A stretch of 64,000 nucleotides of DNA from an archaeon (lineage in GTDB: Archaea; Nanobdellota; Nanobdellia; CSSed11-243R1), in contig JAJRVP010000013.1 of assembly GCA_024277205.1 (NCBI GenBank), positions 8,735-72,734 on the forward strand, in the 5' to 3' direction. Both the position numbers and the translations under genes were made by a program. This document shows, piece after piece, positions 38,369 to 55,099 of the stretch. The stretch's first letter is position 1. Each line of letters opens with the position of its first letter. The notes under the pieces are model-generated. The model worked only from the letters and a program-made list of their open reading frames with translations. It did not search any database and was not told the origin of the DNA.

Positions 38369-39595
38369 TTAAAATTCTCCCAAGGCATAGCGGTTTGAGA
38401 TTTTTCGTTTTTCATGCTTGTGTTCTGAATATCTTTTGCGTTCTTTTTGTTCTTTATAGTGTTCTTTAAACTTTGGAATGTCATAATCTGCCTTTTCAAT
38501 TCTCTGATCCAAATACCACTCAATGCTTGATAAAAATTCTTTATCTCTGCTCGTAACAAGAGTAATTGCTTTTCCTAATTTTCCAGCCCTGCCTGTTCTT
38601 CCAATGCGGTGTACATAGTCTTTTGGGTCTCGAGGGACATTGTAGTTAATAACATGACTAACTCCTCTTATATCAAGTCCCCGAGCAGCCACATCTGTTG
38701 CAACAAGGATGTTAAATTTTCCTTGTCGAAAATTAGAGAGAACTTTATTCCTCCTTGCTTGGGAAAAGTTACCATGCAAGGCATCTGCTTTATAACCCAT
38801 TCTTTTTAGGTTATGAACTAATTTATCAACTGCAATTTTTGTATTGCAAAAGATAATTGCTGATTTTATTTTTTCTTTGGATAAGATTGTTTTAAGGGCA
38901 TTTAGTTTATTCCTATAATCAACTTCGCAGTAAACCTGTTTTGTATCCTTAACAGTTAATTCATCTTTGCTTACTTGAATTAGCTCAGGATTTTTCATAT
39001 AATCTTTTGCAAGATTCAAAATGGATTCTGGCATTGTTGCTGAAAAAAGCAAGGTTTGATGATTTTTAGGAACTTTTTCTAGAATGAATCTCATATCCTC
39101 TATGAATCCCATGTCCAACATTCTGTCTGCTTCGTCAAGAACAACAATTTTTATGTTGTCAAGCTTTAGGTTTCCCCTATTTATTTGATCAATTAATCTT
39201 CCAGGTGTACCAACTATGACATGAGTGCCGCGATGTAAAATTTCTGCTTGCCTATCTATGCTTACTCCACCATAAACAGATAGCACATTGATTTTTTTGT
39301 ATTTTCCAAGCTTTTTTATTTCATTGCTTACCTGTACAGCCAATTCTCTTGTTGGAACAACAATAATGGCTTGTGGTTTTCTGTGATTTATATCAATTTT
39401 TTCAATAATAGGAATGGCAAATGCAGCAGTTTTACCTGTGCCGGTTTGAGCCTGTCCTATAATGTCTTGTCCCTTTAATATCTTGGGGATTGTTTCTAGC
39501 TGAATAGGAAACATTTCAGAATGCCCTAATTCTTCTATTGCCCTTTTTAATTCTGGGCTTATTTTCAATTCTTCAAATTTTTTTATTTTTTCCAT
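38369..39595 (-). CDS. DEAD-box ATP-dependent RNA helicase
   Basis: Q-motif, AQTGTGKT, PTRELA, DEAD, SAT, HRIGRTGR. Confidence 0.93.
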   Translation of the reverse strand: MEKIKKFEELKISPELKRAIEELGHSEMFPIQLETIPKILKGQDIIGQAQTGTGKTAAFAIPIIEKIDINHRKPQAIIVVPTRELAVQVSNEIKKLGKYKKINVLSVYGGVSIDRQAEILHRGTHVIVGTPGRLIDQINRGNLKLDNIKIVVLDEADRMLDMGFIEDMRFILEKVPKNHQTLLFSATMPESILNLAKDYMKNPELIQVSKDELTVKDTKQVYCEVDYRNKLNALKTILSKEKIKSAIIFCNTKIAVDKLVHNLKRMGYKADALHGNFSQARRNKVLSNFRQGKFNILVATDVAARGLDIRGVSHVINYNVPRDPKDYVHRIGRTGRAGKLGKAITLVTSRDKEFLSSIEWYLDQRIEKADYDIPKFKEHYKEQKERKRYSEHKHEKRKISNRYALGEF

Positions 39596-39732
39596 AAAGA
39601 GCTTAGAATATTTGCTTTTAAAAGCTTTGGGTGTGGCATTTGGCTCGTTTCAACAAAGTTTTTTGATTATCGATATTATCCTAAAAATGTTATACATTGT
39701 CATTAAATTCATTGGAAATGTATAAAGATTAG

Positions 39733-39750
39733 CATTGGAAATATATAAAT
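39733..39750 (+). promoter_or_regulatory. BRE/TATA-like promoter element (ggaaATATATAAAT), second copy of a tandem 18-nt direct repeat
   Basis: Centred about 28 nt upstream of the ATG at 39774; a near-identical copy (cattggaaatgtataaag) lies at 39710-39727. Confidence 0.35.
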
Positions 39751-39773
39751 ATGCATATTTTGTTTAAAATGAT

Positions 39774-40883
39774 ATGGGGCCCTACAAAGTCGATACTAAA
39801 CAAAAAGTTATTATTTATAAAGGGAATAAATTATTTCCTAAAACAACAAAAATAGTTGGTATTTGCGCACCAGATCTATCTCGTAGGCATTTGGATTTAA
39901 AAGAACAAAAAAGATTTGCAGCATTAATTCGAATTTATGGAGTGATTCATAAATATGTAAGTGAATTTATGGAAGCGGAGGGGGTAGTCCTTTTTGATTT
40001 ACCAATAACAACCAGGATGATATCCTCACCAGGTGCTTTAACAGGAACTATAATTTCTGATGTGGATCCGTTTAAAATAAAATTCTTTGATAACGACGTA
40101 TTTTTAACACAATCTTCACAATTATATCTAGAATTTGCAATAACGTGTCCTGGGATAAACCAAGTGTACTGTTGGGACAAAAGTTTTAGAAGGGAAAGAG
40201 CCGATTTTAGGCACTTACCAGAATTTACTCACATAGAATATGAAGGAAATATTGACTTCGAACAGAATTTAGAGTTGCAAGAACGATTTTTAAAATATAT
40301 CGTTCATTCTTTATTGAGATATAACAAAGAGGAATTGGGCACATTCATTACAGAAGAAGATATGGCCCAATTGCAAAAATTAACACAATTAAAAAGATTC
40401 AAAAGGATAACCTTTCATGATGCGTTCAAGATTCTCTATGAATATACGAAAGATGAAAAATATAAAACTCCAACAATCAATAATTTTGGGGCATACGAAG
40501 AGATATTACTTACTGAATTAATGGGTAATGAGCCTGTTTTTGTGACGAATTACATAGGGGATGAAGTTGCTTTCTATCATGCTAATATGAAAGAGAACCC
40601 ATCTCTTGTGATGAATGCAGATTTGTTGTTTCCGGGGTATGGAGAATTAATAGGTAGTGGGCAAAGAGTTAATACCAGGGAAGAAACTTTGGCAAAGGCT
40701 AAACACTTCAAACTTAACATAGATGATTATCAGGCATATATAGATTCTAGAGATCCCATAAATCCCAAAATTCATTCTGGATGGGGAATGGGAATCGAAA
40801 GATTCCTACAATGTATTCTCAAGTTACCTTATATCTGGGAAGCTAAAGTTTTTCCGAGAGTAGATAATTCAAATAGACCGTAG
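39774..40883 (+). CDS. class IIb aminoacyl-tRNA-synthetase catalytic core without anticodon-binding domain (archaeal AsnA-type asparagine synthetase-like)
   Basis: Motif 2 FRRERADFRHLPEFTHIEYE and motif 3 GMGIERFLQCIL...FPR typical of AsnRS/AspRS; no N-terminal OB fold; 369 aa. Confidence 0.7.
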   Translation: MGPYKVDTKQKVIIYKGNKLFPKTTKIVGICAPDLSRRHLDLKEQKRFAALIRIYGVIHKYVSEFMEAEGVVLFDLPITTRMISSPGALTGTIISDVDPFKIKFFDNDVFLTQSSQLYLEFAITCPGINQVYCWDKSFRRERADFRHLPEFTHIEYEGNIDFEQNLELQERFLKYIVHSLLRYNKEELGTFITEEDMAQLQKLTQLKRFKRITFHDAFKILYEYTKDEKYKTPTINNFGAYEEILLTELMGNEPVFVTNYIGDEVAFYHANMKENPSLVMNADLLFPGYGELIGSGQRVNTREETLAKAKHFKLNIDDYQAYIDSRDPINPKIHSGWGMGIERFLQCILKLPYIWEAKVFPRVDNSNRP

Positions 40884-40891
40884 GTGATTTT

Positions 40892-41719
40892 ATGGAATTA
40901 AAAGACATAACTCCTGAAAAAATAGAAAAAATGGATTATAATGAATTAATTGCGATTGTAAGAGAAACAAATAGACCCCCAGGAGGATCTAAAGTAATTA
41001 ATGAGATATTAATTCATTCTTTTATGTCTGATAAGAGTAAGATTTTGGACGTGGGAACAAGTACAGGTTTTACATCATTGGAGATTGCTAAATTGATTAA
41101 TGCTGAAATAATTGGTATTGATATAAATGAACTTGCTCTAAAAGAAGCAAGGGAGAGGGCAAAAAAATATGGATTCCACAATTTAAAATTTTTGAAAGCC
41201 GATGTAACAAATATGCCATTTAAAAAAGGATATTTTGATATGGTGTTTTGTGGTAATGTTACCTCCATAATACCCAACCGAAAAAAAGCATTTGAAGAAT
41301 ATAAAAGAGTCACAAAAAAATGGGGTTTTCTAGCAGCAGTTCCAATGTATTATGTTAAAGAACCACCTAACGAATTGATAAAAAGGGTTTCAGATGCGAT
41401 TCATGTCAATATAAAACCTTTATTCAAAAAAGATTGGATTGATTTTTTTAAAGACCCAGAGTATGAATTGTTTTTTATGAAAGATTATCTCTTTGATAAA
41501 AAAACAGATAAGGAAGTAAATAATTTTGTTGATGAGATCCTTAAACGACCCCATTTGAGAGAGTTACCAGAAGATACCTTCAATTTGCTTAAAAAGAAAT
41601 ATAGGGATTATATGATGCTTTTTAGAGATAATTTAAGTTATATGGGTTTTTCTATATTATTGCTCAGAAAAAAAGATAAGGAGATTGATCCAGAACTTTT
41701 TACCTCAACAGAGATTTGA
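40892..41719 (+). CDS. class I SAM-dependent methyltransferase
   Basis: Motif I ILDVGTSTGF and acidic motif II (IGIDIN); 275 aa. Confidence 0.7.
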   Translation: MELKDITPEKIEKMDYNELIAIVRETNRPPGGSKVINEILIHSFMSDKSKILDVGTSTGFTSLEIAKLINAEIIGIDINELALKEARERAKKYGFHNLKFLKADVTNMPFKKGYFDMVFCGNVTSIIPNRKKAFEEYKRVTKKWGFLAAVPMYYVKEPPNELIKRVSDAIHVNIKPLFKKDWIDFFKDPEYELFFMKDYLFDKKTDKEVNNFVDEILKRPHLRELPEDTFNLLKKKYRDYMMLFRDNLSYMGFSILLLRKKDKEIDPELFTSTEI

Positions 41720-42642
41720 GTTTTAGAAAGAAGATGTTGAATATGGGAAAAATTGATATCCACACTCACATTGGAAAAGATGTTTTATTTGATAATATGG
41801 ACATTCATAAAGAATTAAATAAAGAAACAGCAAATTCTCTTCTAAAAAGAATGGATGATTTCGAAGTTACTTATTCTGTTGTTATGGCTCAACCATTCCC
41901 CACATATTATGACCCAAACTCAATCCATCTTGAAAAAATGAAACCTTCTGGTAAAGATGTGTTTCCATATAGATTAGAAAATGAATTTATTTTATCTGAA
42001 TGTAATGGCAAAGATAGATTACTGCCTTTTTTATTTGTAGACCCTTCTGAAAAATTGGAAGAACAAGTGGAATACATAAAAAGCAAAATAAAGGGAACAA
42101 ATAGAATTTATGGAATAAAGGTGCACCCATTTGCAACACACAGTTATCCCCAAAGCATAATTGATTCGGAGCTTGTTGTCTTAATGAGGGCATACAATTT
42201 ACCAATTATCTTCCATTCAGGTTCTGATGTGTATTCAAACCCCCAAAATATCATAGAATTATCAGAAGCACACCCTGACATAAGGATAGATATGGCGCAT
42301 TTATGTGGATTTGATAGAGATTTGTTTAAAAACTTACCTGACAACAAAAATTTATTTATTGATATCTCTCCATTTGTTTCCTTGTGCAAATCCGTGATAC
42401 ATAAAGATTTTTCAGTAGTTTCTAAAAATTATTTGGAACTTGATTACATAGATATTAAAGAAGTACTAATTTATTTTGTTTCAAATTACAGAGAAAAATT
42501 GATGTGGGGGACCGATACCCCATGGCATAATGTGACAAATACGAGTTATGAAATGGAAAATACTTTTTTGGAAATATTATCTTTTGAAGATAAAAAAATA
42601 ATAACTGAAACAAATGCAAAGAAATTTTTAGGCAATTTATAA
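41716..42642 (+). CDS. amidohydrolase-2 family TIM-barrel metal-dependent hydrolase
   Basis: N-terminal IDIHTHIG metal-binding motif; downstream His (KVHPF, FHSGSD) and Asp (WGTD) residues. Confidence 0.65.
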   Translation: MSFRKKMLNMGKIDIHTHIGKDVLFDNMDIHKELNKETANSLLKRMDDFEVTYSVVMAQPFPTYYDPNSIHLEKMKPSGKDVFPYRLENEFILSECNGKDRLLPFLFVDPSEKLEEQVEYIKSKIKGTNRIYGIKVHPFATHSYPQSIIDSELVVLMRAYNLPIIFHSGSDVYSNPQNIIELSEAHPDIRIDMAHLCGFDRDLFKNLPDNKNLFIDISPFVSLCKSVIHKDFSVVSKNYLELDYIDIKEVLIYFVSNYREKLMWGTDTPWHNVTNTSYEMENTFLEILSFEDKKIITETNAKKFLGNL

Positions 42643-42653
42643 ATAACCCTCAA

Positions 42654-43673
42654 CTAAAAGTGTATCCTAAATACATCTTCTTCAGAATCAAGTTCAACTT
42701 CAGCACCCAGGGGTACTGTGATAATTGGATCTGTATGCCCTATATCTACACCATAACAAATTGGAAAATCATAACCTTTAGTATTTTCAAGTATAATTTC
42801 TTTGAATTTTTCAACTTCGTTTTGGTTATATCTGAATGGCCTACCAACAATTAAACCCTTTATTTTTTCAAATATTCCCGCTATTCTAAGTTCTGTTAAA
42901 TAAGAATCTACGTTTGGGAGTGGTTCTCCTTTTGAAAAATCTTGCCCTTCAGGGATTTCAATAAATAGAATTTTATTCTTGTGATCTGGCCAATATGGTG
43001 TTCCAATTAGATGAATTATTGAGGATAAACACCCCCCAATTATTTGGGCTTTTGCTTTTCCATTTTTAAGCCAAGAAAAACCAGGGTTATTCTTTAATTT
43101 TCTTGCTCTTTTTAAGTCATCTTTTTTTGCCCAATCTAAAATTTCATCTGTCCATCTATCAGATGGTACTACCCTTCCTATTTTTTTACCTTTAAGAACT
43201 GCTTTTAAAAAATAATCAATGGTGTAATCCAACGGTTTTGGAAATTCCCCAAATTGCGTCATAGCACAAGGACCATAAAAACCCATTAGATTGGATTTTT
43301 TCATTAAAGCATAGTGAATAATTGATATATCTGAGTATCCACAAAAAATTTTTGGATGTTTCTTTATTTTTTTAAAGTTTAGATACTCTAAGGTCTGATT
43401 TGCTGTATTTCCTCCAATAGTCGTGAGAATTAAATCTACACTTCCATCAAAAAAAGCACTGTTGATATCATTTGCTCGCTCTTCTGGAGTTCCAGCACTC
43501 CAGTCTTTAACCTTTCTGATAGTTCCAAATTCCTTGACTCCAAATCCAATTTTTTTGAGGGCTTTAATGGCATTATGTATTCTATGTGGAAAAATGGCAG
43601 ATAAACAAGAAGATGGTGCGATAATCCCAATTGTACTTCCTTTTTCTATTTTCTTTGGTTTAATAATGTCCAT
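42654..43673 (-). CDS. S66-family LD-carboxypeptidase (LdcA/MccF-like serine peptidase)
   Basis: N-terminal GSTIGIIAPSS and catalytic-serine motif FCGYSDISIIH, characteristic of peptidase S66 / microcin C7 immunity protein MccF. Confidence 0.75.
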   Translation of the reverse strand: MDIIKPKKIEKGSTIGIIAPSSCLSAIFPHRIHNAIKALKKIGFGVKEFGTIRKVKDWSAGTPEERANDINSAFFDGSVDLILTTIGGNTANQTLEYLNFKKIKKHPKIFCGYSDISIIHYALMKKSNLMGFYGPCAMTQFGEFPKPLDYTIDYFLKAVLKGKKIGRVVPSDRWTDEILDWAKKDDLKRARKLKNNPGFSWLKNGKAKAQIIGGCLSSIIHLIGTPYWPDHKNKILFIEIPEGQDFSKGEPLPNVDSYLTELRIAGIFEKIKGLIVGRPFRYNQNEVEKFKEIILENTKGYDFPICYGVDIGHTDPIITVPLGAEVELDSEEDVFRIHF

Positions 43674-43711
43674 GATTTTAAGAAAAAGTACAAGTAATAA
43701 ATATTTTATGT

Positions 43712-44134
43712 TTAATATTTGTTGATAATTCTTGCCAATTCTTTCAATTCTTCTTCATCTGCTCGGATTCCAATATTATTTGGTCCTTTTTCTGTTGTTA
43801 GGTAACCCAAGTAAGATTCATCATACATTGGATATAATTTGATATGAGCATGATCGATCTCCATCCCCTCAAATACAATGAATACCCTCTGGCTTCCCAA
43901 TGACTTAGTAAGTTTATCTGCTGTTTCTTTAACAGCTAAAAATAGAGATATGTAATCCTCTTGTGGCATATCAAAAATATTGCTTCCAAAATGTTTTTTT
44001 GGGATGACAAGAGATTGACCTTTTGTATTTGGATAGATATCTAAAAATCCTAAATTTTTATCATCTTCATATATTTTGTGATAGGGTTCCTTACCCAAAA
44101 CCATTCTACAAAACAAACAATCGTGATTTATCAT
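43712..44134 (-). CDS. HIT-family hydrolase (Hint-like)
   Basis: Histidine triad (IDHAHIKLYP); 140 aa. Confidence 0.8.
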   Translation of the reverse strand: MINHDCLFCRMVLGKEPYHKIYEDDKNLGFLDIYPNTKGQSLVIPKKHFGSNIFDMPQEDYISLFLAVKETADKLTKSLGSQRVFIVFEGMEIDHAHIKLYPMYDESYLGYLTTEKGPNNIGIRADEEELKELARIINKY

Positions 44135-44246
44135 GATGTACTGAAGTAATTATGTGTTTATATATTTTATCACTCTAAAGTAACACAGGTTAACAAAAAC
44201 TTTAAATATGGATTTTGTATTATTTTTAATAACTCGATAGTAGTGA

Positions 44247-46793
44247 GTGATTAAAATGGAATCTGATAAAAAGAGTTTTTATTTAGTGTTTGCGTATCCT
44301 ACTGCATCCGGTACTGCTCATGTAGGGCACATGAGGTCTTATACTTTTCCTGATATAATCGCCAGATATCAACGTCTGAAGGGAAAAAATGTTTTTTTTC
44401 CATCAGGATTACATGCTACAGGGGTAGATTGTGAGAATCTGTTTCAGAATTTTAAAGAGAATCCAAAAATCTGTGAAAAATATGGTTTAAACGTGGAAGA
44501 TTTGGCAGAAATAAATTCGCCATTTGATCTTGTTAAATACCTAGAACGTCGCTTTAAAAAATCATTCAAGGATTATAACTTAAGTTTAGATTATGATTGT
44601 TTTGTAACCACTGTAGATGAACCGTATAAACGATTTATTCAATGGCAAATTAAAAAATTAAGAGAAAAAGGGTATATAATAAAAAAAAACCATAGACTTC
44701 CTTGGTGCCCAAATTGTGAACACACAGTATCTTTGGATCCTGCAGAGGCAGATCTTAAATTTGGAGGTACTGCTAGAATTGTAGATTATGCATTAATTAA
44801 ATTCGCAGTTGATAATGAAGATAATGTTTTTGCCCCCATAGGTACATTACGTTCAGAAACTATCTTTGGTGCTACAAATCTTTGGATTTCTAAAAATACA
44901 GAATATATAAAAACAAAAATAAATGGAGAATACTGGATAATTTCAAAAGAAGCATTAGCTAATTTGAGAGTCTATGATAACAATATCTCTATTGAAGAAA
45001 AAATTGATGCTTCCGAATTAGAAAGATTGACTGTAATAAATCCAGTTAACTTGGAAAGATTACCAATAATAGCAACAGATTTTGTAAAACCTGAAGAAGC
45101 AACAGGAGTAGTTATGTCTGTGCCCGCTCATGATCCTTATGATTTCATAAATGTTAAAAAATTTTTACCAGATGCGAATATTAAAATTGTTGTTAATACT
45201 AAAAAAACATTAGAAGAATTAATCGATGAATCCAAACAAACAGAAAAGGAATTGGAACAAATACTAAAAAAACATTATTCGGAAGAAAACAGAGGGACTA
45301 TGTTGGAATTCACAGGAAAATATGCTGGGATGAAAGCTTCAGAAGCAAGAAAAGAGTTGATTTCTGATCTAATCAAAATGGGCAAATGTGATATTCTACC
45401 TACTTTATCTGAACCAGTTAGATGTAGATGTGGGACTGATGTCACAATAAAAATAGTTAAAGGACAATGGTTTATAGATTATAGCAATCCAAAATGGAAG
45501 AAAAAGACTAAACATCTTTGTGAAGGTATCCAAACATATCCAAATGATTACAAAGATGAACTTCTAAATCATATCATTGATTGGATAGATGCAAGACCAT
45601 GCACAAGAAAACACGGCATGGGAACGGAATTTCCTTTAGAAGAGGGGTGGTTAGTAGAAGCACTTGCAGATAGTACAATGTATATGGCTTTTTTCCCAAT
45701 AATGAAGTATTACAACAATGGTAAATTAAAGATAGAAAACCTCACCGACGAATTTTTTGATTATTTACTTTTAGATAAAGGGGAGGTTGATACTGTTTCA
45801 AGTAATACAGGATTACCTAAAGAAACACTGTTGGAAATAAAAGATTTTTTTGAGGAAGTATACCCACTTGATCTAAATGCGGGTGGTATAGAACATAAAG
45901 CAGTTCATTTTCCATTTTTCTTATTTACTCACGCTGCTTTGTTAGATGAAAAATATTTTCCAAAATCCATTTTCCTAAATTGGCATGTTGTAGTTGAAGG
46001 GGAAAAGATGAGTAAAAGTAAGGGGAATGTGGTATTTTGGGATGATTTAATTAAACGCTATAAAAATGATCAGATAAGATATTATATAACTGCATCCACT
46101 AACCAATGGAGTAATTTCGACTGGCAAGAGAAAGAGTTAGTCGCTTATGCTAATAGGTATAATAAGCTTGTTAGCAACATTGAGGATATTTTAGAAAGGG
46201 TGGAACATTTAGATAAAATATCTGATAAGGACCATATAGATGAATGGCTTTTATCAAAACAGGATACGTTTATTAATGAGGCAACAAAAAACATGGAAAA
46301 TTATAACTTGAGAAACGTTCTCCATATTGTAGCATATGAGATGACAGAAACAATTAATTGGTATTTAGAGCGTGGTGGGTCAAATAAAGAAGTAGCGGAA
46401 GGATTTGTTTTTAATCAATTAGCTATGCTGACACCATTCTTGCCAGAAACTGTTGAAGATCTTAGTAAGAGTGTAAATTTGAGTATAGATCACTGGCCAG
46501 AATCCAACGGTGTCCAAAATAAAAAAATAGAAATGATAGAGGATTCAATTAAAAAAACAATAGAAGATATAAACAATGTTAAACGCATAAGCTCTGGCGA
46601 ACATCAAAGGTGTATACTTTATGTTGTTAGTGAAGTAGAGAAAAAAGTGTATGAATCTGCATTGCCATTGATAAAAGATAAAGTTGGTATCCCCGAAGTA
46701 ATGGTTTATCAGGTAAACGAAAAGAATGTTGAAGATCCTTTGGAAAAATCCAAAAAAGCAAAATTTTGTAGGCCGGGATTATTTTTGGATTGA
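44247..46793 (+). CDS. leuS: leucyl-tRNA synthetase, archaeal/eukaryal type, short form (848 aa)
   Basis: HIGH-type motif (PTASGTAHVGHM), KMSKS (KMSKSKGN); N-terminus strongly LeuRS-like; shorter than typical archaeal LeuRS (about 950 aa). Confidence 0.8.
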   Translation: MIKMESDKKSFYLVFAYPTASGTAHVGHMRSYTFPDIIARYQRLKGKNVFFPSGLHATGVDCENLFQNFKENPKICEKYGLNVEDLAEINSPFDLVKYLERRFKKSFKDYNLSLDYDCFVTTVDEPYKRFIQWQIKKLREKGYIIKKNHRLPWCPNCEHTVSLDPAEADLKFGGTARIVDYALIKFAVDNEDNVFAPIGTLRSETIFGATNLWISKNTEYIKTKINGEYWIISKEALANLRVYDNNISIEEKIDASELERLTVINPVNLERLPIIATDFVKPEEATGVVMSVPAHDPYDFINVKKFLPDANIKIVVNTKKTLEELIDESKQTEKELEQILKKHYSEENRGTMLEFTGKYAGMKASEARKELISDLIKMGKCDILPTLSEPVRCRCGTDVTIKIVKGQWFIDYSNPKWKKKTKHLCEGIQTYPNDYKDELLNHIIDWIDARPCTRKHGMGTEFPLEEGWLVEALADSTMYMAFFPIMKYYNNGKLKIENLTDEFFDYLLLDKGEVDTVSSNTGLPKETLLEIKDFFEEVYPLDLNAGGIEHKAVHFPFFLFTHAALLDEKYFPKSIFLNWHVVVEGEKMSKSKGNVVFWDDLIKRYKNDQIRYYITASTNQWSNFDWQEKELVAYANRYNKLVSNIEDILERVEHLDKISDKDHIDEWLLSKQDTFINEATKNMENYNLRNVLHIVAYEMTETINWYLERGGSNKEVAEGFVFNQLAMLTPFLPETVEDLSKSVNLSIDHWPESNGVQNKKIEMIEDSIKKTIEDINNVKRISSGEHQRCILYVVSEVEKKVYESALPLIKDKVGIPEVMVYQVNEKNVEDPLEKSKKAKFCRPGLFLD

Positions 46794-46797
46794 TAAA

Positions 46798-47313
46798 ATG
46801 GAATTTATATATGAAAAAAAGGTATTCAGGATTGATAGAGAAGTATATGCTACTATCTGCGATTTTTTTGAAAGTTATTCTTTTTATCGAATAAATGAGA
46901 TATTCATTATTCCTAAATCAATAAAAAATAGGAGGTCTCAGATTAATAGGATGCGAGTAGAAACTAACCACCTAAGATATCCAGTTAATGTAAAAATTAA
47001 TGAACGTGGTAATTTAAGGGAGTATTATATAAGAAGTTTTGGTTCTGATTTCAATCTTGTTTTATTTGAATGGTATGAAACTTGGGATAAACCATTTAGA
47101 GTTTATTCGTTGGGTAAGGGACTTTATAATAACAGAGAAGTGGCATTACTGGCATTAGCCCAAGCTTTTGGAGAAAAAGAGAAACTTATTGTTTTGGCAG
47201 ATGAATTAAAAAAGAAGGGTGAAAATTTATTTAGTGAACTAGAAATAACCATCTCCACAGAATTTCATTCATCATGTTTAAGAATTGCGGGCGTGGTTCA
47301 AGATGAATATTGA
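46798..47313 (+). CDS. hypothetical protein (about 171 aa from MEFIY)
   Basis: ORF immediately after the LeuRS stop; could be a split C-terminal module or unrelated. Confidence 0.4.
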   Translation: MEFIYEKKVFRIDREVYATICDFFESYSFYRINEIFIIPKSIKNRRSQINRMRVETNHLRYPVNVKINERGNLREYYIRSFGSDFNLVLFEWYETWDKPFRVYSLGKGLYNNREVALLALAQAFGEKEKLIVLADELKKKGENLFSELEITISTEFHSSCLRIAGVVQDEY

Positions 47314-48535
47314 GGGTAAACTTAAAGAAATGAAAAAAACACTAGAATTGGCTGAAGTAATTGATCTTGGGGGATATGGTAAGGGACTGCCCCTATGGCT
47401 GCCTTATGGGTTAAAAATTGCTGAAAGGATAAATGACTTATTTATTGCTCACTTACAAAAAAAATTAGATTTTGAAATTATAGATCACCCAAATCTAATC
47501 CCTCTTGAGGAATATTCCTCATTATTTGATAAAGTTGGTTTTGAAAATGTTTATGTTCTGGAAGGAGAGAAAAAGTATGTATTACGGCCAGATACACTAC
47601 AATTCAATTTCGAATATATTCTTCAAAAAGATATAAATGCAGCCTTATCTATTTCTTCTGGATTCAGAGTAGAAACAGGGATTACTGTTCCTCTTTTTAG
47701 GGATAGGCATATTTGGCCCTTTATTCAATTCAATAGTATGTGTGATAATACTGATCTAGAAAATTTGTTACAAAAGAATGTATCTGCTCTTGCCGAACTT
47801 TTTGAAGACATGTGTTTCCCATATTTCTTTGTTGATAGTGGTAAAAAGAGGAATTATGCGGGAAATCAAATAAATGGTATGACATTTATGGAAAGTGGGG
47901 AACTAACAATAATTTCGATGACGTATGTTCTATCAAATCTCTTTTCTGAACATTTTGGTGTCCCAAATAAGAAGATGATAGATTCGGGTTATACTGAAAA
48001 ATTAGTTGGTATGTTAGCTATTCTTCACAGAGATGAAAATGGACTTATTCTTCCAAGTAAAATTGCGCCCTACAACATAGTTTGTTTTTCACGGGAAGGT
48101 AATATTCATCCAGATATTAAGGAGATGTTGAATAGTACCTCTTTTAGGATTTACTATGACGAACAAGAGGATAAAATAAAAAGGAAGTTTAAAAGATGGA
48201 TTAGGAAGGGCACCAATATTATTTTACTGTGCGAAAATGATAAAATTGTAAAAGTTGTTAAAAGGTATAATGATTCCTCAGAGGAATTTAAGAATGTAGG
48301 TAGGTTTGAGCAGATCTTAAAAGAAAATGACGATTTTCTTAAGAATAGATGTATTCATTTAATTGAAAGTTTGTCAGATAGATCTAAAGAACCGTATATT
48401 GCTAGTCTTTGTGATGGATGTGCTGAAAATAAAAAAGTTTTTGGGAGAATATATCCAGAAAAAAAAGAAAAATGTGAATTCTGTGGAAAAGAAGGAGTTA
48501 AATACTTAGTTACAAATGTGTCAAGAATATACTAA
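47285..48535 (+). CDS. truncated/divergent class IIa aaRS paralog, ProRS-like (416 aa) with C-terminal Zn ribbon and terminal Tyr
   Basis: ProRS-like motif-2 region (FRVETGITVPLFRDRHIWPF), motif-3/anticodon-domain junction (LILPSKIAPYNIV), C-terminal CDGC...CEFC and final ...RIY as in archaeal-type ProRS. Confidence 0.5.
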   Translation: MRAWFKMNIEGKLKEMKKTLELAEVIDLGGYGKGLPLWLPYGLKIAERINDLFIAHLQKKLDFEIIDHPNLIPLEEYSSLFDKVGFENVYVLEGEKKYVLRPDTLQFNFEYILQKDINAALSISSGFRVETGITVPLFRDRHIWPFIQFNSMCDNTDLENLLQKNVSALAELFEDMCFPYFFVDSGKKRNYAGNQINGMTFMESGELTIISMTYVLSNLFSEHFGVPNKKMIDSGYTEKLVGMLAILHRDENGLILPSKIAPYNIVCFSREGNIHPDIKEMLNSTSFRIYYDEQEDKIKRKFKRWIRKGTNIILLCENDKIVKVVKRYNDSSEEFKNVGRFEQILKENDDFLKNRCIHLIESLSDRSKEPYIASLCDGCAENKKVFGRIYPEKKEKCEFCGKEGVKYLVTNVSRIY

Positions 48536-48539
48536 AGAA

Positions 48540-48724
48540 AGCCTCGGGAGGGACTTTCACGCACCCACGGAAATTCTTTCCGTGCACGCTTTCTTTTTAA
48601 GAAAGGGTGCTTTCGAACCCTCGACCCCCAGCTTACAAGGCTGGTGCTCTGGCCAATTGCTCCAACACCTTCTTTTGGTGCAGCTTTTCTTCCAAAGAAA
48701 AGGTGCTAGCTGAGCTACCGAGGC
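48540..48724 (-). tRNA. tRNA-Thr (anticodon UGU) with two introns (D-loop and T-loop)
   Basis: Minus-strand hand fold: acceptor GCCTCGG/CCGAGGC, D-stem GCTC/GAGC, anticodon arm CCAGC-CTTGTAA-GCTGG, T-stem GAGGG/CCCTC; about 50-nt insertions interrupt the D-loop and T-loop. Confidence 0.65.
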
Positions 48725-48797
48725 TTTTGTGTACTTTCCGTACACGCTTTTTCAAAGGGTGTAATTATTTAAATATTTTGATTGTATTCTTATTTTA

Positions 48798-49022
48798 ATG
48801 AAAATAAAACCTTTTGGAACAAGAGATATAATCAGAATTGTTATAACTTTGATAATAACATTGCTTGTTGGCATTTTTGTTGCACCAATTCAATCTTGGG
48901 TTTTAATATTGGCAATAGGAGTTTTAATCTATACTCTTTTACTTGAATTAATTAAATTTTATGCAGGCCTAAAAAATTTGAGAAAGAAGAAATTTGAAGT
49001 GGCAACTATCCAATTCGAATAA
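48798..49022 (+). CDS. small membrane protein (74 aa)
   Basis: Two predicted TM helices. Confidence 0.35.
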   Translation: MKIKPFGTRDIIRIVITLIITLLVGIFVAPIQSWVLILAIGVLIYTLLLELIKFYAGLKNLRKKKFEVATIQFE

Positions 49023-51180: not shown

Positions 51181-51401
51181 TGTCGGGGGTGGGACTTTCA
51201 AGCACCCACCAAATTTTTCTTTTGGTGCAGCTTTTCTTTTTAAGAAAAGGTGCTTTTGAACCCACGATCACCTGGTCATGAGCCAGGCATTCTACCAGAT
51301 TGTTCAACTTTCCGTCAACGCTTCGGCGAGACTTCGTCTCGACGCCCAGCGACAGAGTCGCTAGGTGCGCGAAGCGGAAAGGGTTGCTAAACTACCCCGA
51401 C
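51181..51401 (-). tRNA. tRNA-Met (anticodon CAU, elongator-like) with a large D-region intron and a T-loop intron
   Basis: Minus-strand fold: acceptor GTCGGGG/CCCCGAC, anticodon arm CCTGG-CTCATGA-CCAGG, T-stem GTGGG/CCCAC, discriminator A; a GC-rich insertion of about 80 nt in the D region and the conserved T-loop insert of about 50 nt. Confidence 0.55.
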
Positions 51402-51466: not shown

Positions 51467-51784
51467 CTAAAAAGATTTTTTATAGAACTCATTTAATTCA
51501 CGTCTCCATATCTCAACATAACCATTTGCCTCAAGACAATTAAGAATAATCTCTGTTGCTATGCTGGCGTGTCCTAATGAATACGTGTTATTTATGATCT
51601 CTTTAGCACGTTCTTTTCTTGAATATAAATAAAAGTTTATAGCATCTACATTCCTTTCAAGCATCTTCTTTTGTAATTCCAAAATAATCTCATCTAACGT
51701 GTTTTTTTCAAGAAGGAGAGCCTTGTTGTTCTTGTCAACCAAATCTATGAATCTCCTTGCAGTTTCCATCGCAACTTTTTCCAT
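51467..51784 (-). CDS. hypothetical protein (105 aa)
   Basis: ORF only. Confidence 0.4.
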   Translation of the reverse strand: MEKVAMETARRFIDLVDKNNKALLLEKNTLDEIILELQKKMLERNVDAINFYLYSRKERAKEIINNTYSLGHASIATEIILNCLEANGYVEIWRRELNEFYKKSF

Positions 51785-51855
51785 GATTGTGAGAATTAGA
51801 TTTGTTTTAAAAAGATTTATTTAGTTAGAAATATATGTTGGGAAGTACATAAGAA

Positions 51856-52263
51856 TCAAATCAAATGTAATTTGATTTTTTCTGTGATTTCTCTGAACTT
51901 TTCAGATGTGTATGTTTTTGTTTTTTTTATGTTCATTAAATCCTCAAGAGAGTCGCTTTTAAGTTTTGGAAGAAGCCAGACATGAGCATGTGGAACCTCA
52001 TCTCCCAAAACATAAGAGAGAATTTGCTCGGTGCCAAAAGCTTTTCTTATTGCTTTAGCAATCTTTTGGACGACTTTGTAGTATTCGTCTATGTTTGGCA
52101 CATCCCAAACCCACTGAATATGTTCTTTTGGAATCACTAAAACATGTCCTTCTGTAACAGGACGGATTGAAAGAAAGGCAAGAAATTTTTCATCTTCATA
52201 AACTTTGTAAGCGTTTAGTTCTCCTTTTACGATTTTGCAGAATGGGCATTCAATTGTCTTCAT
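51856..52263 (-). CDS. HIT-family hydrolase
   Basis: Histidine triad (VPHAHVWLLP); N-terminal CPFC; 135 aa. Confidence 0.8.
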   Translation of the reverse strand: MKTIECPFCKIVKGELNAYKVYEDEKFLAFLSIRPVTEGHVLVIPKEHIQWVWDVPNIDEYYKVVQKIAKAIRKAFGTEQILSYVLGDEVPHAHVWLLPKLKSDSLEDLMNIKKTKTYTSEKFREITEKIKLHLI

Positions 52264-52816
52264 ATTCTACACCCATCTTCTCAAACAATAATCGTGCGTA
52301 TCCTTTATGGATTATATTTTCCTTTGGCAACTTAAGTTTTTCTATTAATCTAAGAATTCTCTTTTTTGCTTCTTCGCTGTTGTCCGAAATTAATTCAAAC
52401 TCAACAAAATCACCAAGCCCTTCAATTTTATCAAGGTTCACTTCAAACTCATTAAGCTTTCCTTGCTCCCTTGTTTTTACTTTTGAAATAACTTTTACAA
52501 AGCCAAGCTTTTCAAGAATTCTCTCCATGTCTTTTTTGTTTGAGATTTCAGTTTCATATTCTTCCCAAACTCCTTGCTTGCCTGTGAGCAATTTCATAGT
52601 TAGAATTGATTTTTCATTTTCGCTGCGAATTCTGAGAAGAAAGGAGCCAGCTTTTTGTAACTCCATTTCTTTTCCTTTTTGCTTGTAATAGTTATCAACT
52701 TGCTTTTTCGGGCTTCCAAATTTTGCGCCAATAGACTCTAGTTTCTTTTTCACTTCTTCCAAATTTTCAACTTTAACTTTTACTTCGATTTCCAAATTAT
52801 CCCTGTTTGTATCCAA
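52250..52816 (-). CDS. CYTH-domain protein (triphosphate tunnel metalloenzyme / CyaB-like)
   Basis: N-terminal E-x-E-x-K motif (LEIEVKVKV) and later LRIR; 188 aa; overlaps the neighbouring genes at both ends. Confidence 0.7.
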   Translation of the reverse strand: MDTNRDNLEIEVKVKVENLEEVKKKLESIGAKFGSPKKQVDNYYKQKGKEMELQKAGSFLLRIRSENEKSILTMKLLTGKQGVWEEYETEISNKKDMERILEKLGFVKVISKVKTREQGKLNEFEVNLDKIEGLGDFVEFELISDNSEEAKKRILRLIEKLKLPKENIIHKGYARLLFEKMGVEYEDN

Positions 52817-53294
52817 TTTTTCTTAAGAATTCTTTGCGCTCTTTAATTTTGTTTTCATCTTCAATCCCTTTTGGCTTGTTGCCATCAATCACACCAAGAA
52901 TTCCTTTTCCTTGCTCTGTTTCTGCAACAATTACTTCTGTTGGATTTGCAGTTGCTGTAAAAATTCTGCACACTTCGGGTATCATTTTAATCGCATTTAA
53001 AATATTGATTGGGTATCCATTTCGCAAGAAGATTATAAATGTATGCCCAGCCCCAATTTTGTATGCTTGCTCTGCTGCAGCTTTTTCTAGTTCTTCATCA
53101 TTACCTGTATGTCTTATTAGGCAATCTCCAGATGCTTCTACAAAACCAATTCCAAATTTTATATTTGGATTGCAATTGACAATTGCTTCGTATAAGTCTT
53201 CAACAGATTTAATAAAATGTGTTTGTCCAAGAATTAGATTAACATCTTGGGGAGATTCAATTTTTACAATTTTGATTTCCATTTGTTTCACCAA
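52797..53294 (-). CDS. archaeal adenosine-specific-kinase-family (PF04008-like) protein
   Basis: 165 aa; pattern IKIVKIE...GQTHFIKSVEDL...GIGFVEASG...HTGNDEELEKAA...GAGHTFIIFL resembles that conserved archaeal family, called from memory. Confidence 0.45.
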   Translation of the reverse strand: MVKQMEIKIVKIESPQDVNLILGQTHFIKSVEDLYEAIVNCNPNIKFGIGFVEASGDCLIRHTGNDEELEKAAAEQAYKIGAGHTFIIFLRNGYPINILNAIKMIPEVCRIFTATANPTEVIVAETEQGKGILGVIDGNKPKGIEDENKIKERKEFLRKIGYKQG

Positions 53295-53388
53295 ATCTAC
53301 AAAACCATTTTCAATATTAATATTTTCCTTATTTAATAACTACTACTACATAGTAGCATTTATAAATAAGAGTTGTTCTTAGTCAAGT

Positions 53389-54415: not shown

Positions 54416-54596
54416 TGGACCTGTCGGGACTTTCAAGCACCCACGAAAGTTTTCTCTTTCGTGCACGTTTCTTTTTAAGAAGGGTGCTTTTGAACCCGAA
54501 ACCTCCCGCAATCAGGAACCTCTTCTTTTAGTAAAGCTTTTCTTTTTAAGAAAAGGTTGTGCCAAGCGGGTGCGCTACCAATTGCGCCACAGGCCC
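54416..54596 (-). tRNA. tRNA-Ala (anticodon GGC) with a canonical anticodon-loop intron and a T-loop intron
   Basis: Minus-strand fold: acceptor GGGCCTG/CAGGTCC giving the G3:U70 Ala identity pair, discriminator A73, D-arm GCGC-AATTGGTA-GCGC, anticodon stem CCCGC/GCGGG with loop TTGGCA interrupted after position 37, T-stem TCGGG/CCCGA with an insert of about 50 nt in the T-loop. Confidence 0.65.
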
Positions 54597-54969: not shown

Positions 54970-54982
54970 TTTATCACCAAAA

Positions 54983-55099
54983 AGGGCCTGACGGGATTTG
55001 AACCCGCGACCTGCTGGTTAAGAGCCAGCCGCTCTGACCAGACTTTGCCAACCCTTTTCTGTAAACGCTTTTTCCAAAAGGGTTTTGAGCTACAGGCCC
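54983..55099 (-). tRNA. tRNA-Lys (anticodon CUU) with a D-loop intron
   Basis: Minus-strand fold: acceptor GGGCCTG/CAGGCCC, D-stem GCTC/GAGC with a hairpin insert of about 40 nt (AACCCTTTT...AAAAGGGTT), anticodon arm GCTGG-CTCTTAA-CCAGC, T-arm GCGGG-TTCAAAT-CCCGT. Confidence 0.7.

Follow-up and report, generated by a model that had tools for sequence, protein, structure and literature searches.

A tightly packed PF04008-CYTH-HIT gene row in a genome-reduced archaeon, probably a lineage-specific arrangement of common housekeeping genes

HIT proteins are named for a histidine triad, H-phi-H-phi-H-phi-phi, whose middle His is the catalytic nucleophile. CYTH proteins include the triphosphate tunnel metalloenzymes (TTMs), of which the archaeal SaTTM (Saci_0718, PDB 7NS8) cleaves inorganic triphosphate (PPPi) and removes the gamma phosphate of ATP without producing cAMP, as described in PMC8233210; according to Vogt et al. 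2021, it prefers inorganic triphosphate over nucleoside triphosphates (NTPs). The class IV adenylate cyclases of the CyaB kind (e.g., Yersinia pestis, PDB 3N0Y) belong to the same Pfam family, and Vogt et al. 2021 supplies motif criteria that separate them from TTMs: in a true cyclase, HF stands four residues ahead of ExExK, ExE has become ExA and the central Arg of xRxR has given way to a small residue, while the second Glu of ExE binds metal 2 in TTM enzymes. The third family, PF04008, bears the doubtful name “adenosine-specific kinase.” As cited in PMC10248530, its member PAE2307 binds adenosine and AMP and carries a phospho-histidine, and a Thermus homologue is reported to cleave ADP to AMP; the T. 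maritima protein had no kinase, ADPase or phosphatase activity. Here, we describe a locus at which one gene of each family stands in a tight row, at positions 51467 to 53294 of a 64,000-nucleotide stretch (the window) of the archaeal assembly GCA_024277205.1 (contig JAJRVP010000013.1, positions 8,735 to 72,734, forward strand).

The host is a genome-reduced, Nanoarchaeota-like DPANN archaeon, whose assembly of 684,139 bases in 21 contigs is estimated to be 91.6% complete. On the minus strand, four open reading frames (ORFs) follow one another head to tail where the original prediction had placed them: a PF04008 gene (52797-53294; longest ORF, 165 aa), a CYTH gene of the TTM type (52250-52816; longest ORF, 188 aa), a HIT gene of a subfamily marked by H-x-H-x-W (51856-52263; 135 aa) and a small ORF, ORF105 (51467-51784; 105 aa), 71 nt downstream of HIT. 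The first three, referred to here as the trio, are best explained as a lineage-specific, probably co-transcribed row of individually common housekeeping genes that is not a conserved dedicated system, a reading that we consider probable although far from certain. Overlaps of 20 nt (52797-52816, PF04008/CYTH) and 14 nt (52250-52263, CYTH/HIT), as reported in that prediction, were reproduced for the longest ORFs, and the former hinges on the start codon chosen for CYTH. Because a 181-aa entry of the collection (P0121) fits and the resulting M-EIEVK start resembles the MEIEVK of PDB 2dc4, the CYTH start is probably TTG 52795, which would yield 181 aa and leave a gap of 1 nt after the upstream stop. 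The most likely PF04008 start is ATG 53282, which would give 161 aa; by eye, GGTGA lies 5 nt ahead of this codon, and GGGTG lies ahead of the HIT ATG. Under either CYTH start, the packing appears tight enough for coupled translation, and the suggestion of close packing with possible translational coupling is thus upheld. On the other side of the PF04008 gene, an A/T-rich intergenic region (53295-53388, minus strand) separates it from a divergent 128-aa ORF. Judged by eye, this region contains the stretches TTTATAAA and TTAATATT and is a likely putative promoter region for the cluster, from which the trio would probably be co-transcribed.

The assignment to PF04008 had been made with reservation; it proved correct. 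The protein matches the whole Pfam profile (positions 1-154 of 154) with 254.1 bits (E = 5e-76; cut-off, 25). Its relatives in the PDB, ST1511 (E = 7.5e-64; alignment score, 217.6 bits), PAE2307 (9.4e-56), TTHA1091 (8e-51) and PH1918, were all found at E = 1e-44 or better. Encoded by a single gene in the genome, the protein is 55 to 86% identical to seven other aligned sequences of related genomes, with 50 invariant columns including two His residues (H26 and H84), and 59 to 92% identical to relatives across archaea and bacteria, an unusually strong conservation. The likeness to PAE2307, ST1511, TTHA1091 and the T. maritima protein consists of a full-length, high-scoring match with the family's invariant residues present, and no sequence feature distinguishes the window protein from these four. 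The gene is intact and belongs to a family that is conserved very strongly and whose chemistry is disputed.

The CYTH and HIT assignments also held, with Pfam scores well over the gathering cut-offs. The CYTH protein, likewise encoded by a single-copy gene, scored 85.0 bits over the full profile (positions 1-179 of 179). Its best PDB matches are archaeal (2dc4, E = 4.8e-15; SaTTM 7ns8, E = 2.2e-13; and 1yem), and the class IV cyclases 3n0y and 2fjt are its weakest. Like SaTTM and the mostly archaeal CYTH cluster with the Pyrococcus proteins 1YEM and 2EEN, it is a single domain of ~180 aa with an ExExK at the N terminus (E9-I-E11-V-K13, aligned to MEIEVK of 2dc4), an xRxR in which the central Arg is retained (L-L-R-I-R, aligned to A-L-R-L-R of SaTTM) and an ExE on the last strand (VEFEL, aligned to IEIEG of SaTTM, E135/E137); the match to SaTTM is weak (53.8 bits). 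None of the three cyclase features was found in the protein. Unlike CyaB, it lacks the pattern HFxxxxExExK, as the longest ORF has T-N in place of HF and translation from the likely start (L8) would leave no N-terminal extension to hold such a motif; it has ExE and not ExA; and the gate-keeper Arg is kept and not replaced by a small residue. The W/YxRxR motif of thiamine triphosphatases was also not found in it, a Leu occupying the aromatic position. Since the TTM motifs are present, those of the cyclases are absent and the nearest solved relatives are archaeal, the protein is predicted to be a TTM-type triphosphatase that cleaves off the terminal phosphate of inorganic triphosphate and/or NTPs with divalent metal ions, and cAMP synthesis is not predicted. 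Only 18 relatives were detected at E ≤ 1e-5 among 5.8 billion clusters, so that it appears to form a divergent branch. Automatic annotation would probably misname it, because the NCBIfam equivalog TIGR00318 (“class IV adenylate cyclase”) gives 95.2 bits (cut-off, 57.95) to a protein that passes none of the three cyclase motif tests.

The HIT protein scored 61.0 bits in Pfam (cut-off, 21.5) and departs from the canonical triad. Its motif is H92-A-H94-V-W96-L-L (context V-P-H-A-H-V-W-L-L-P), with the first two His residues present and Trp at the third position, where HIT proteins in the PDB have H-x-H-x-H. With the Hint-like proteins 1Y23, 3P0T, 7MQW and 3LB5, it shares the fold, the first two His residues and a CxxC, which is N-terminal in the window protein; the third His, replaced by Trp here, is kept in all four best profile matches with alignments. 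The replacement is a conserved subfamily trait and thus not damage: Trp occupies this column in 120 of 121 sequences (120 homologues and the query), within a subfamily motif H-A-H-V/I-W-L that is accompanied by the invariants CxxC and HxRWVWDV. A search at E ≤ 1e-5 returned 1,089 homologues, whose source names point to DPANN archaea and Patescibacteria, including Nanoarchaeia and Pacearchaeota. An AF2 model built from 20 sequences (pLDDT, 93.1; TM, 0.82 to 0.84 to HIT structures) allows the fold to be assigned with confidence. The protein falls far below the NCBIfam equivalog cut-offs for HinT/purine nucleoside phosphoramidase (47.4 versus 130 and 28 versus 206 bits), and no solved or described H-x-H-x-W member was found among PDB matches or by a full-text literature search. 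Because H94, which aligns with the nucleophilic middle His of the canonical triad, is kept, the protein is predicted to be a hydrolase that releases a nucleoside 5'-monophosphate (NMP) from an NMP-X substrate, e.g., a phosphoramidate, an acyl-adenylate or a dinucleoside polyphosphate.

How far the three genes travel together was examined in 41 related genomes, including the window's own. HIT is present in all 41, CYTH in 19 and PF04008 in 10. The trio is linked, in the order PF04008 > CYTH > HIT, in all three genomes of the window's genus (G000, G001 and G002) and, by comparison of coordinates, in none of the other 38, so that the co-conservation by which the original prediction was to be judged exists within the genus and stops at its border. 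Even there, the arrangement is not constant. In the window, PF04008 is followed by CYTH, HIT and ORF105; G001 has PF04008, CYTH, a 214-aa unknown and HIT; and G002 has PF04008, a 132-aa unknown, a Pol-beta-type nucleotidyltransferase (NTase), CYTH, a 201-aa unknown, HIT and two more ORFs. In G003, which represents a different genus of the same family, only a Metallophos_2 phosphoesterase gene follows PF04008, and the CYTH gene of this genome lies on another contig, where it adjoins a His_Phos_1 gene. In the other six PF04008-bearing relatives, no CYTH above the cut-off and no nearby HIT were found; a sub-threshold CYTH-like match in G030, 4.3 kb from PF04008 and on the opposite strand, was not counted. 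L096, a contig from a metagenome, shares synteny with the window between S8e and a YdjM-like gene, and its PF04008 and HIT genes are 73 nt apart. The spacer can be aligned to the final ~80 nt of the window CYTH and is read as a CYTH relic, which indicates that CYTH was lost there and that PF04008 and HIT were kept. Two further observations concern these relatives. A His_Phos_1 gene stands on the same strand beside CYTH in two other genera of the window's family (L189:3562-4038 in G003 and L192:445-1044 in G005), and a HIT match in G003 (C34:31129-31501) comes in two pieces with a TAA between them and may be a broken HIT gene.

Wider surveys gave the same picture. At least 596 PF04008 pattern matches in species genomes were confirmed among the 600 matches listed, and the 80 best loci, from archaea and bacteria, were inspected over ±4 kb. 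CYTH, sought in the locus surveys with our own hidden Markov model of 19 sequences, which is narrower than the Pfam model, occurs near one of these 80 loci, that of the window's genus, and near none of the 79 outside it; HIT, likewise sought with a model of our own, occurs near seven and is missing from the vicinity of 73. Pfam families of 267 neighboring ORFs, taken from the two nearest ORFs per side (with E ≤ 1e-10 in a second batch), are very diverse. Genes of a translation or tRNA type (aminoacyl-tRNA synthetases, TrmO, MiaB-like and ribosomal proteins) adjoin ~22 to 25 of the 80 loci by hand count, which is about what four random neighbors in small genomes would be expected to give, and no link of PF04008 to such genes is drawn from it. 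Around the H-x-H-x-W HIT gene, surveyed in 80 metagenome loci of which 49 are at least 4 kb long, PF04008 was found once (L096) and CYTH never. The recurrent neighbors there were RmlC-like (12 loci), RmlB-like (10 loci), a second HIT (8 loci) and histidyl-tRNA synthetase (HisRS; 6 loci). Seventeen further CYTH loci in the class have diverse neighbors, with no PF04008 and no HIT among them.

Several side observations came from the same loci. The H-x-H-x-W HIT gene stands most often between the RmlC-like and RmlB-like genes, which encode sugar-nucleotide enzymes, or directly after HisRS, and PF04008 also directly follows HisRS in two loci (L041 and L088). In L053, His_Phos_1 and adenosine deaminase genes precede PF04008. 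One ORF of a member of the Bathyarchaeia (L043:1037-1837) joins an N-terminal part of cysteinyl-tRNA synthetase to the last 57 positions of PF04008, with a full PF04008 gene just upstream; this fusion-like ORF may be an assembly or duplication artifact. HIT-like genes of two Aenigmatarchaeota records, placed directly upstream of PF04008 (L021:3064-3999 and L026:2427-2945), have the altered triads PHAHIRVYP, FHEPQIHIVP and PHFNVRVYP, and some of them may be inactive.

The junction between CYTH and HIT records how the row has changed. The gene that follows CYTH has its start codon and first four codons inside the CYTH 3' end (ATGAAGAYAATTGA). HIT takes this place in the window and L096, with MKTI-EC or MKTT-NC at its N terminus. 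In G001 and G002, the place is taken by the 214/201-aa gene, whose product starts with MKII, and HIT there uses an ATG of its own and starts with M-EC. A single indel, located exactly between the CYTH stop and the second codon of HIT, separates the two states. A deletion in the window's line would be one in-frame event with GA microhomology and would account for the longer MKTI-EC start. An insertion in the ancestor of G001 and G002 is indicated by a six-protein tree built from the flanking genes and rooted on G003, in which the window branches first and L096 stands beside G001 plus G002 with an ultrafast bootstrap of 90; the outgroup has a long branch and contributes three of the six proteins. 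Mechanism thus favors deletion and the tree favors insertion of the 214/201-aa gene. The two copies of this gene are 48% identical and have no Pfam, PADLOC or PHROGs family, the best atlas score being 0.79, which is only a lead; in a search with this gene as the query, it was not found in the window's genome, at its 91.6% completeness. Five syntenic contigs (the window, G001, G002, G003 and L096) share a frame that runs from PF04008 to a homologue of ORF308, and their contents in between differ. Genes come and go freely in the slot that PF04008 and the conserved tRNA-Met/ORF308 frame enclose, and the trio is one state of this slot.

Read as a local row of common housekeeping genes, the trio may nevertheless share a loose theme: together, the three would break down nucleotide and polyphosphate species to NMP and phosphate in an organism that has to scavenge nucleotides. 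A role in nucleotide salvage or clean-up is plausible. Four observations weigh against the view that the row has no deeper meaning. Three nucleotide/phosphate enzymes in a row, with start and stop codons that overlap or lie 1 nt apart, would be improbable in a genome of ~700 genes if the genes were unrelated; their order does not vary among the three genomes of the genus; 5 of the 80 PF04008 loci (L021, L026, L034, L079 and L090), which belong to two other phyla, have an immediately adjacent HIT in the same orientation; and a CYTH-HIT pair recurs in G040, in the order NMNAT-like, CYTH, HIT. The PF04008-HIT adjacency and the G040 pair hint at some functional tie.

Downstream of HIT, the fourth ORF of the cluster exists as described but probably does not belong with the others. 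ORF105 has no Pfam family, its sole match among 1.84 billion representatives is itself, it is absent at the matching position in G001, G002 and L096, and its single-sequence AF2 model (pLDDT, 45) is not usable; since it has no relatives and is missing from the sister contigs, it is an ORFan and was not counted in the unit. Beyond it lies tRNA-Met(CAU) (51185-51400, minus strand; outer limits set by eye), the downstream landmark of the cluster. Its core (51242-51314) scores 17 bits, its acceptor halves were placed by eye, and inserts interrupt both the D-arm and the T-loop; G001, G002 and L096 retain the gene in the same place, with HIT on one side and the ORF308 homologue on the other. The T-loop insert of ~55 nt is found only in the window, since the sister genes (L011:7215-7445, L012:9265-9455 and L096:4400-4625) have an uninterrupted T-arm (GGTTCAAATCC...), and intron content therefore differs between close relatives. 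The upstream landmark named in the original prediction is a candidate intron-bearing tRNA-Ala(GGC) (54491-54596, minus strand) with a UU-GGC loop, a G3:U70 acceptor pair and a score of 24.2 bits; ARAGORN did not detect it and reported only tRNA-Lys(CTT) (54982-55055). The tRNA-Met flank thus gains from its conservation in three related contigs, although both landmarks fall below the 29-bit cut-off of Rfam.

The locus, which lies between two intron-bearing tRNA genes, had been framed as an island, and a mobile or defense island with the trio as cargo would also agree with the gene content that varies among the sister genomes, including the G002 NTase with its weak matches to PADLOC candidate families. 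This framing is not supported. The GC content of the trio segment (0.33) equals that of its surroundings and is ~0.33 throughout; four related contigs preserve PF04008, HIT, tRNA-Met and the flanking genes in synteny; a Pfam scan of nine ORFs turned up no integrase family; PADLOC gave only a generic HIT match (27.7 bits) for the trio, and PHROGs gave only HIT families of unknown function. We regard an island as very improbable, and a nucleotide second-messenger module, the other role that had been suggested, as more improbable still. In such a module, CYTH would play the part of a class IV adenylate cyclase, with HIT and/or PF04008 left to degrade the signal or to sense it. The TIGR00318 score is in its favor, but the protein has none of the three cyclase determinants given in Vogt et al. 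2021, the cyclases are its weakest PDB matches behind archaeal TTMs, and SaTTM itself makes no cAMP (PMC8233210); the suggestion is not supported.

Two other readings give the row, or part of it, a dedicated function, and we think neither likely. A pathway for adenine-nucleotide breakdown can be written in which HIT would split a dinucleoside polyphosphate or an adenylylated compound (e.g., Ap4A into AMP and ATP), CYTH would take off the gamma phosphate (ATP into ADP) and PF04008 would turn ADP into AMP, yielding AMP and phosphate for salvage. The three reactions link up on paper, an archaeal TTM turns ATP into ADP (PMC8233210) and a PF04008 member is credited with the last step (as cited in PMC10248530), and the tight spacing in the window and the constant order in the genus fit as well. 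We nonetheless consider this pathway unlikely: L096 has dispensed with CYTH and retained the other two genes, the trio is unlinked in every genome examined outside the genus, SaTTM favors inorganic triphosphate over NTPs (Vogt et al. 2021), and the T. maritima PF04008 protein showed none of the activities sought, ADPase among them. The L096 contig, with PF04008 and HIT 73 nt apart after the loss of CYTH, fits better with a second possibility, that PF04008 and HIT form a real functional pair on a common adenylylated substrate and that CYTH is a passenger in this lineage. Of the five adjacent, co-directional pairs elsewhere in the survey, two are from Aenigmatarchaeota and three from Chloroflexota, against a rough expectation of ~1 or fewer. 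In the window, L021 and L026, the adjacent HIT lacks the third His of the triad, with Trp or Arg in its place, and in L026 the second His is also replaced. The HIT subfamilies differ, however, with a canonical, Hint-like HLHFHLL in Chloroflexota and variants in archaea; PF04008 is near only 1 of the 80 H-x-H-x-W HIT loci; HIT is missing from the ±4 kb around 73 of the 80 PF04008 loci; the five cases represent perhaps two or three independent events; and neighbors with a metallo-beta-lactamase fold (L022, L024, L035 and L037) are about as frequent. We therefore hold such a pair to be rather improbable. It is equally doubtful that the pairing arose repeatedly, in this Nanoarchaeota lineage, in Aenigmatarchaeota and in Chloroflexota, with a Trp- or Arg-variant partner in the window, L021 and L026.

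Farther along the window, a stretch of ~9 kb (39600-48800) is absent from the same spot in G001 (L011), where ~1 kb separates the counterparts of two window genes (48798-49022 and 38369-39595). It contains ORFs of 848, 416, 369, 339, 308 and 275 aa and a second HIT-like gene (43712-44134).

Taken by itself, the finding is of little importance beyond the correct annotation of three genes, whose tight arrangement is local and changeable. By the published motifs, the name “class IV adenylate cyclase” that TIGR00318 confers would be wrong for the CYTH protein. A by-product is a large HIT subfamily, with named members from DPANN archaea and Patescibacteria, that has H-x-H-x-W in place of the histidine triad. 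The recurrence of HIT beside PF04008 is a weak lead, but it offers a cheap hypothesis for a family with contested biochemistry. If true, repeated PF04008-HIT pairing would provide the first physiological context for PF04008 and would give a role to a large uncharacterized HIT subfamily of ultra-small symbionts.

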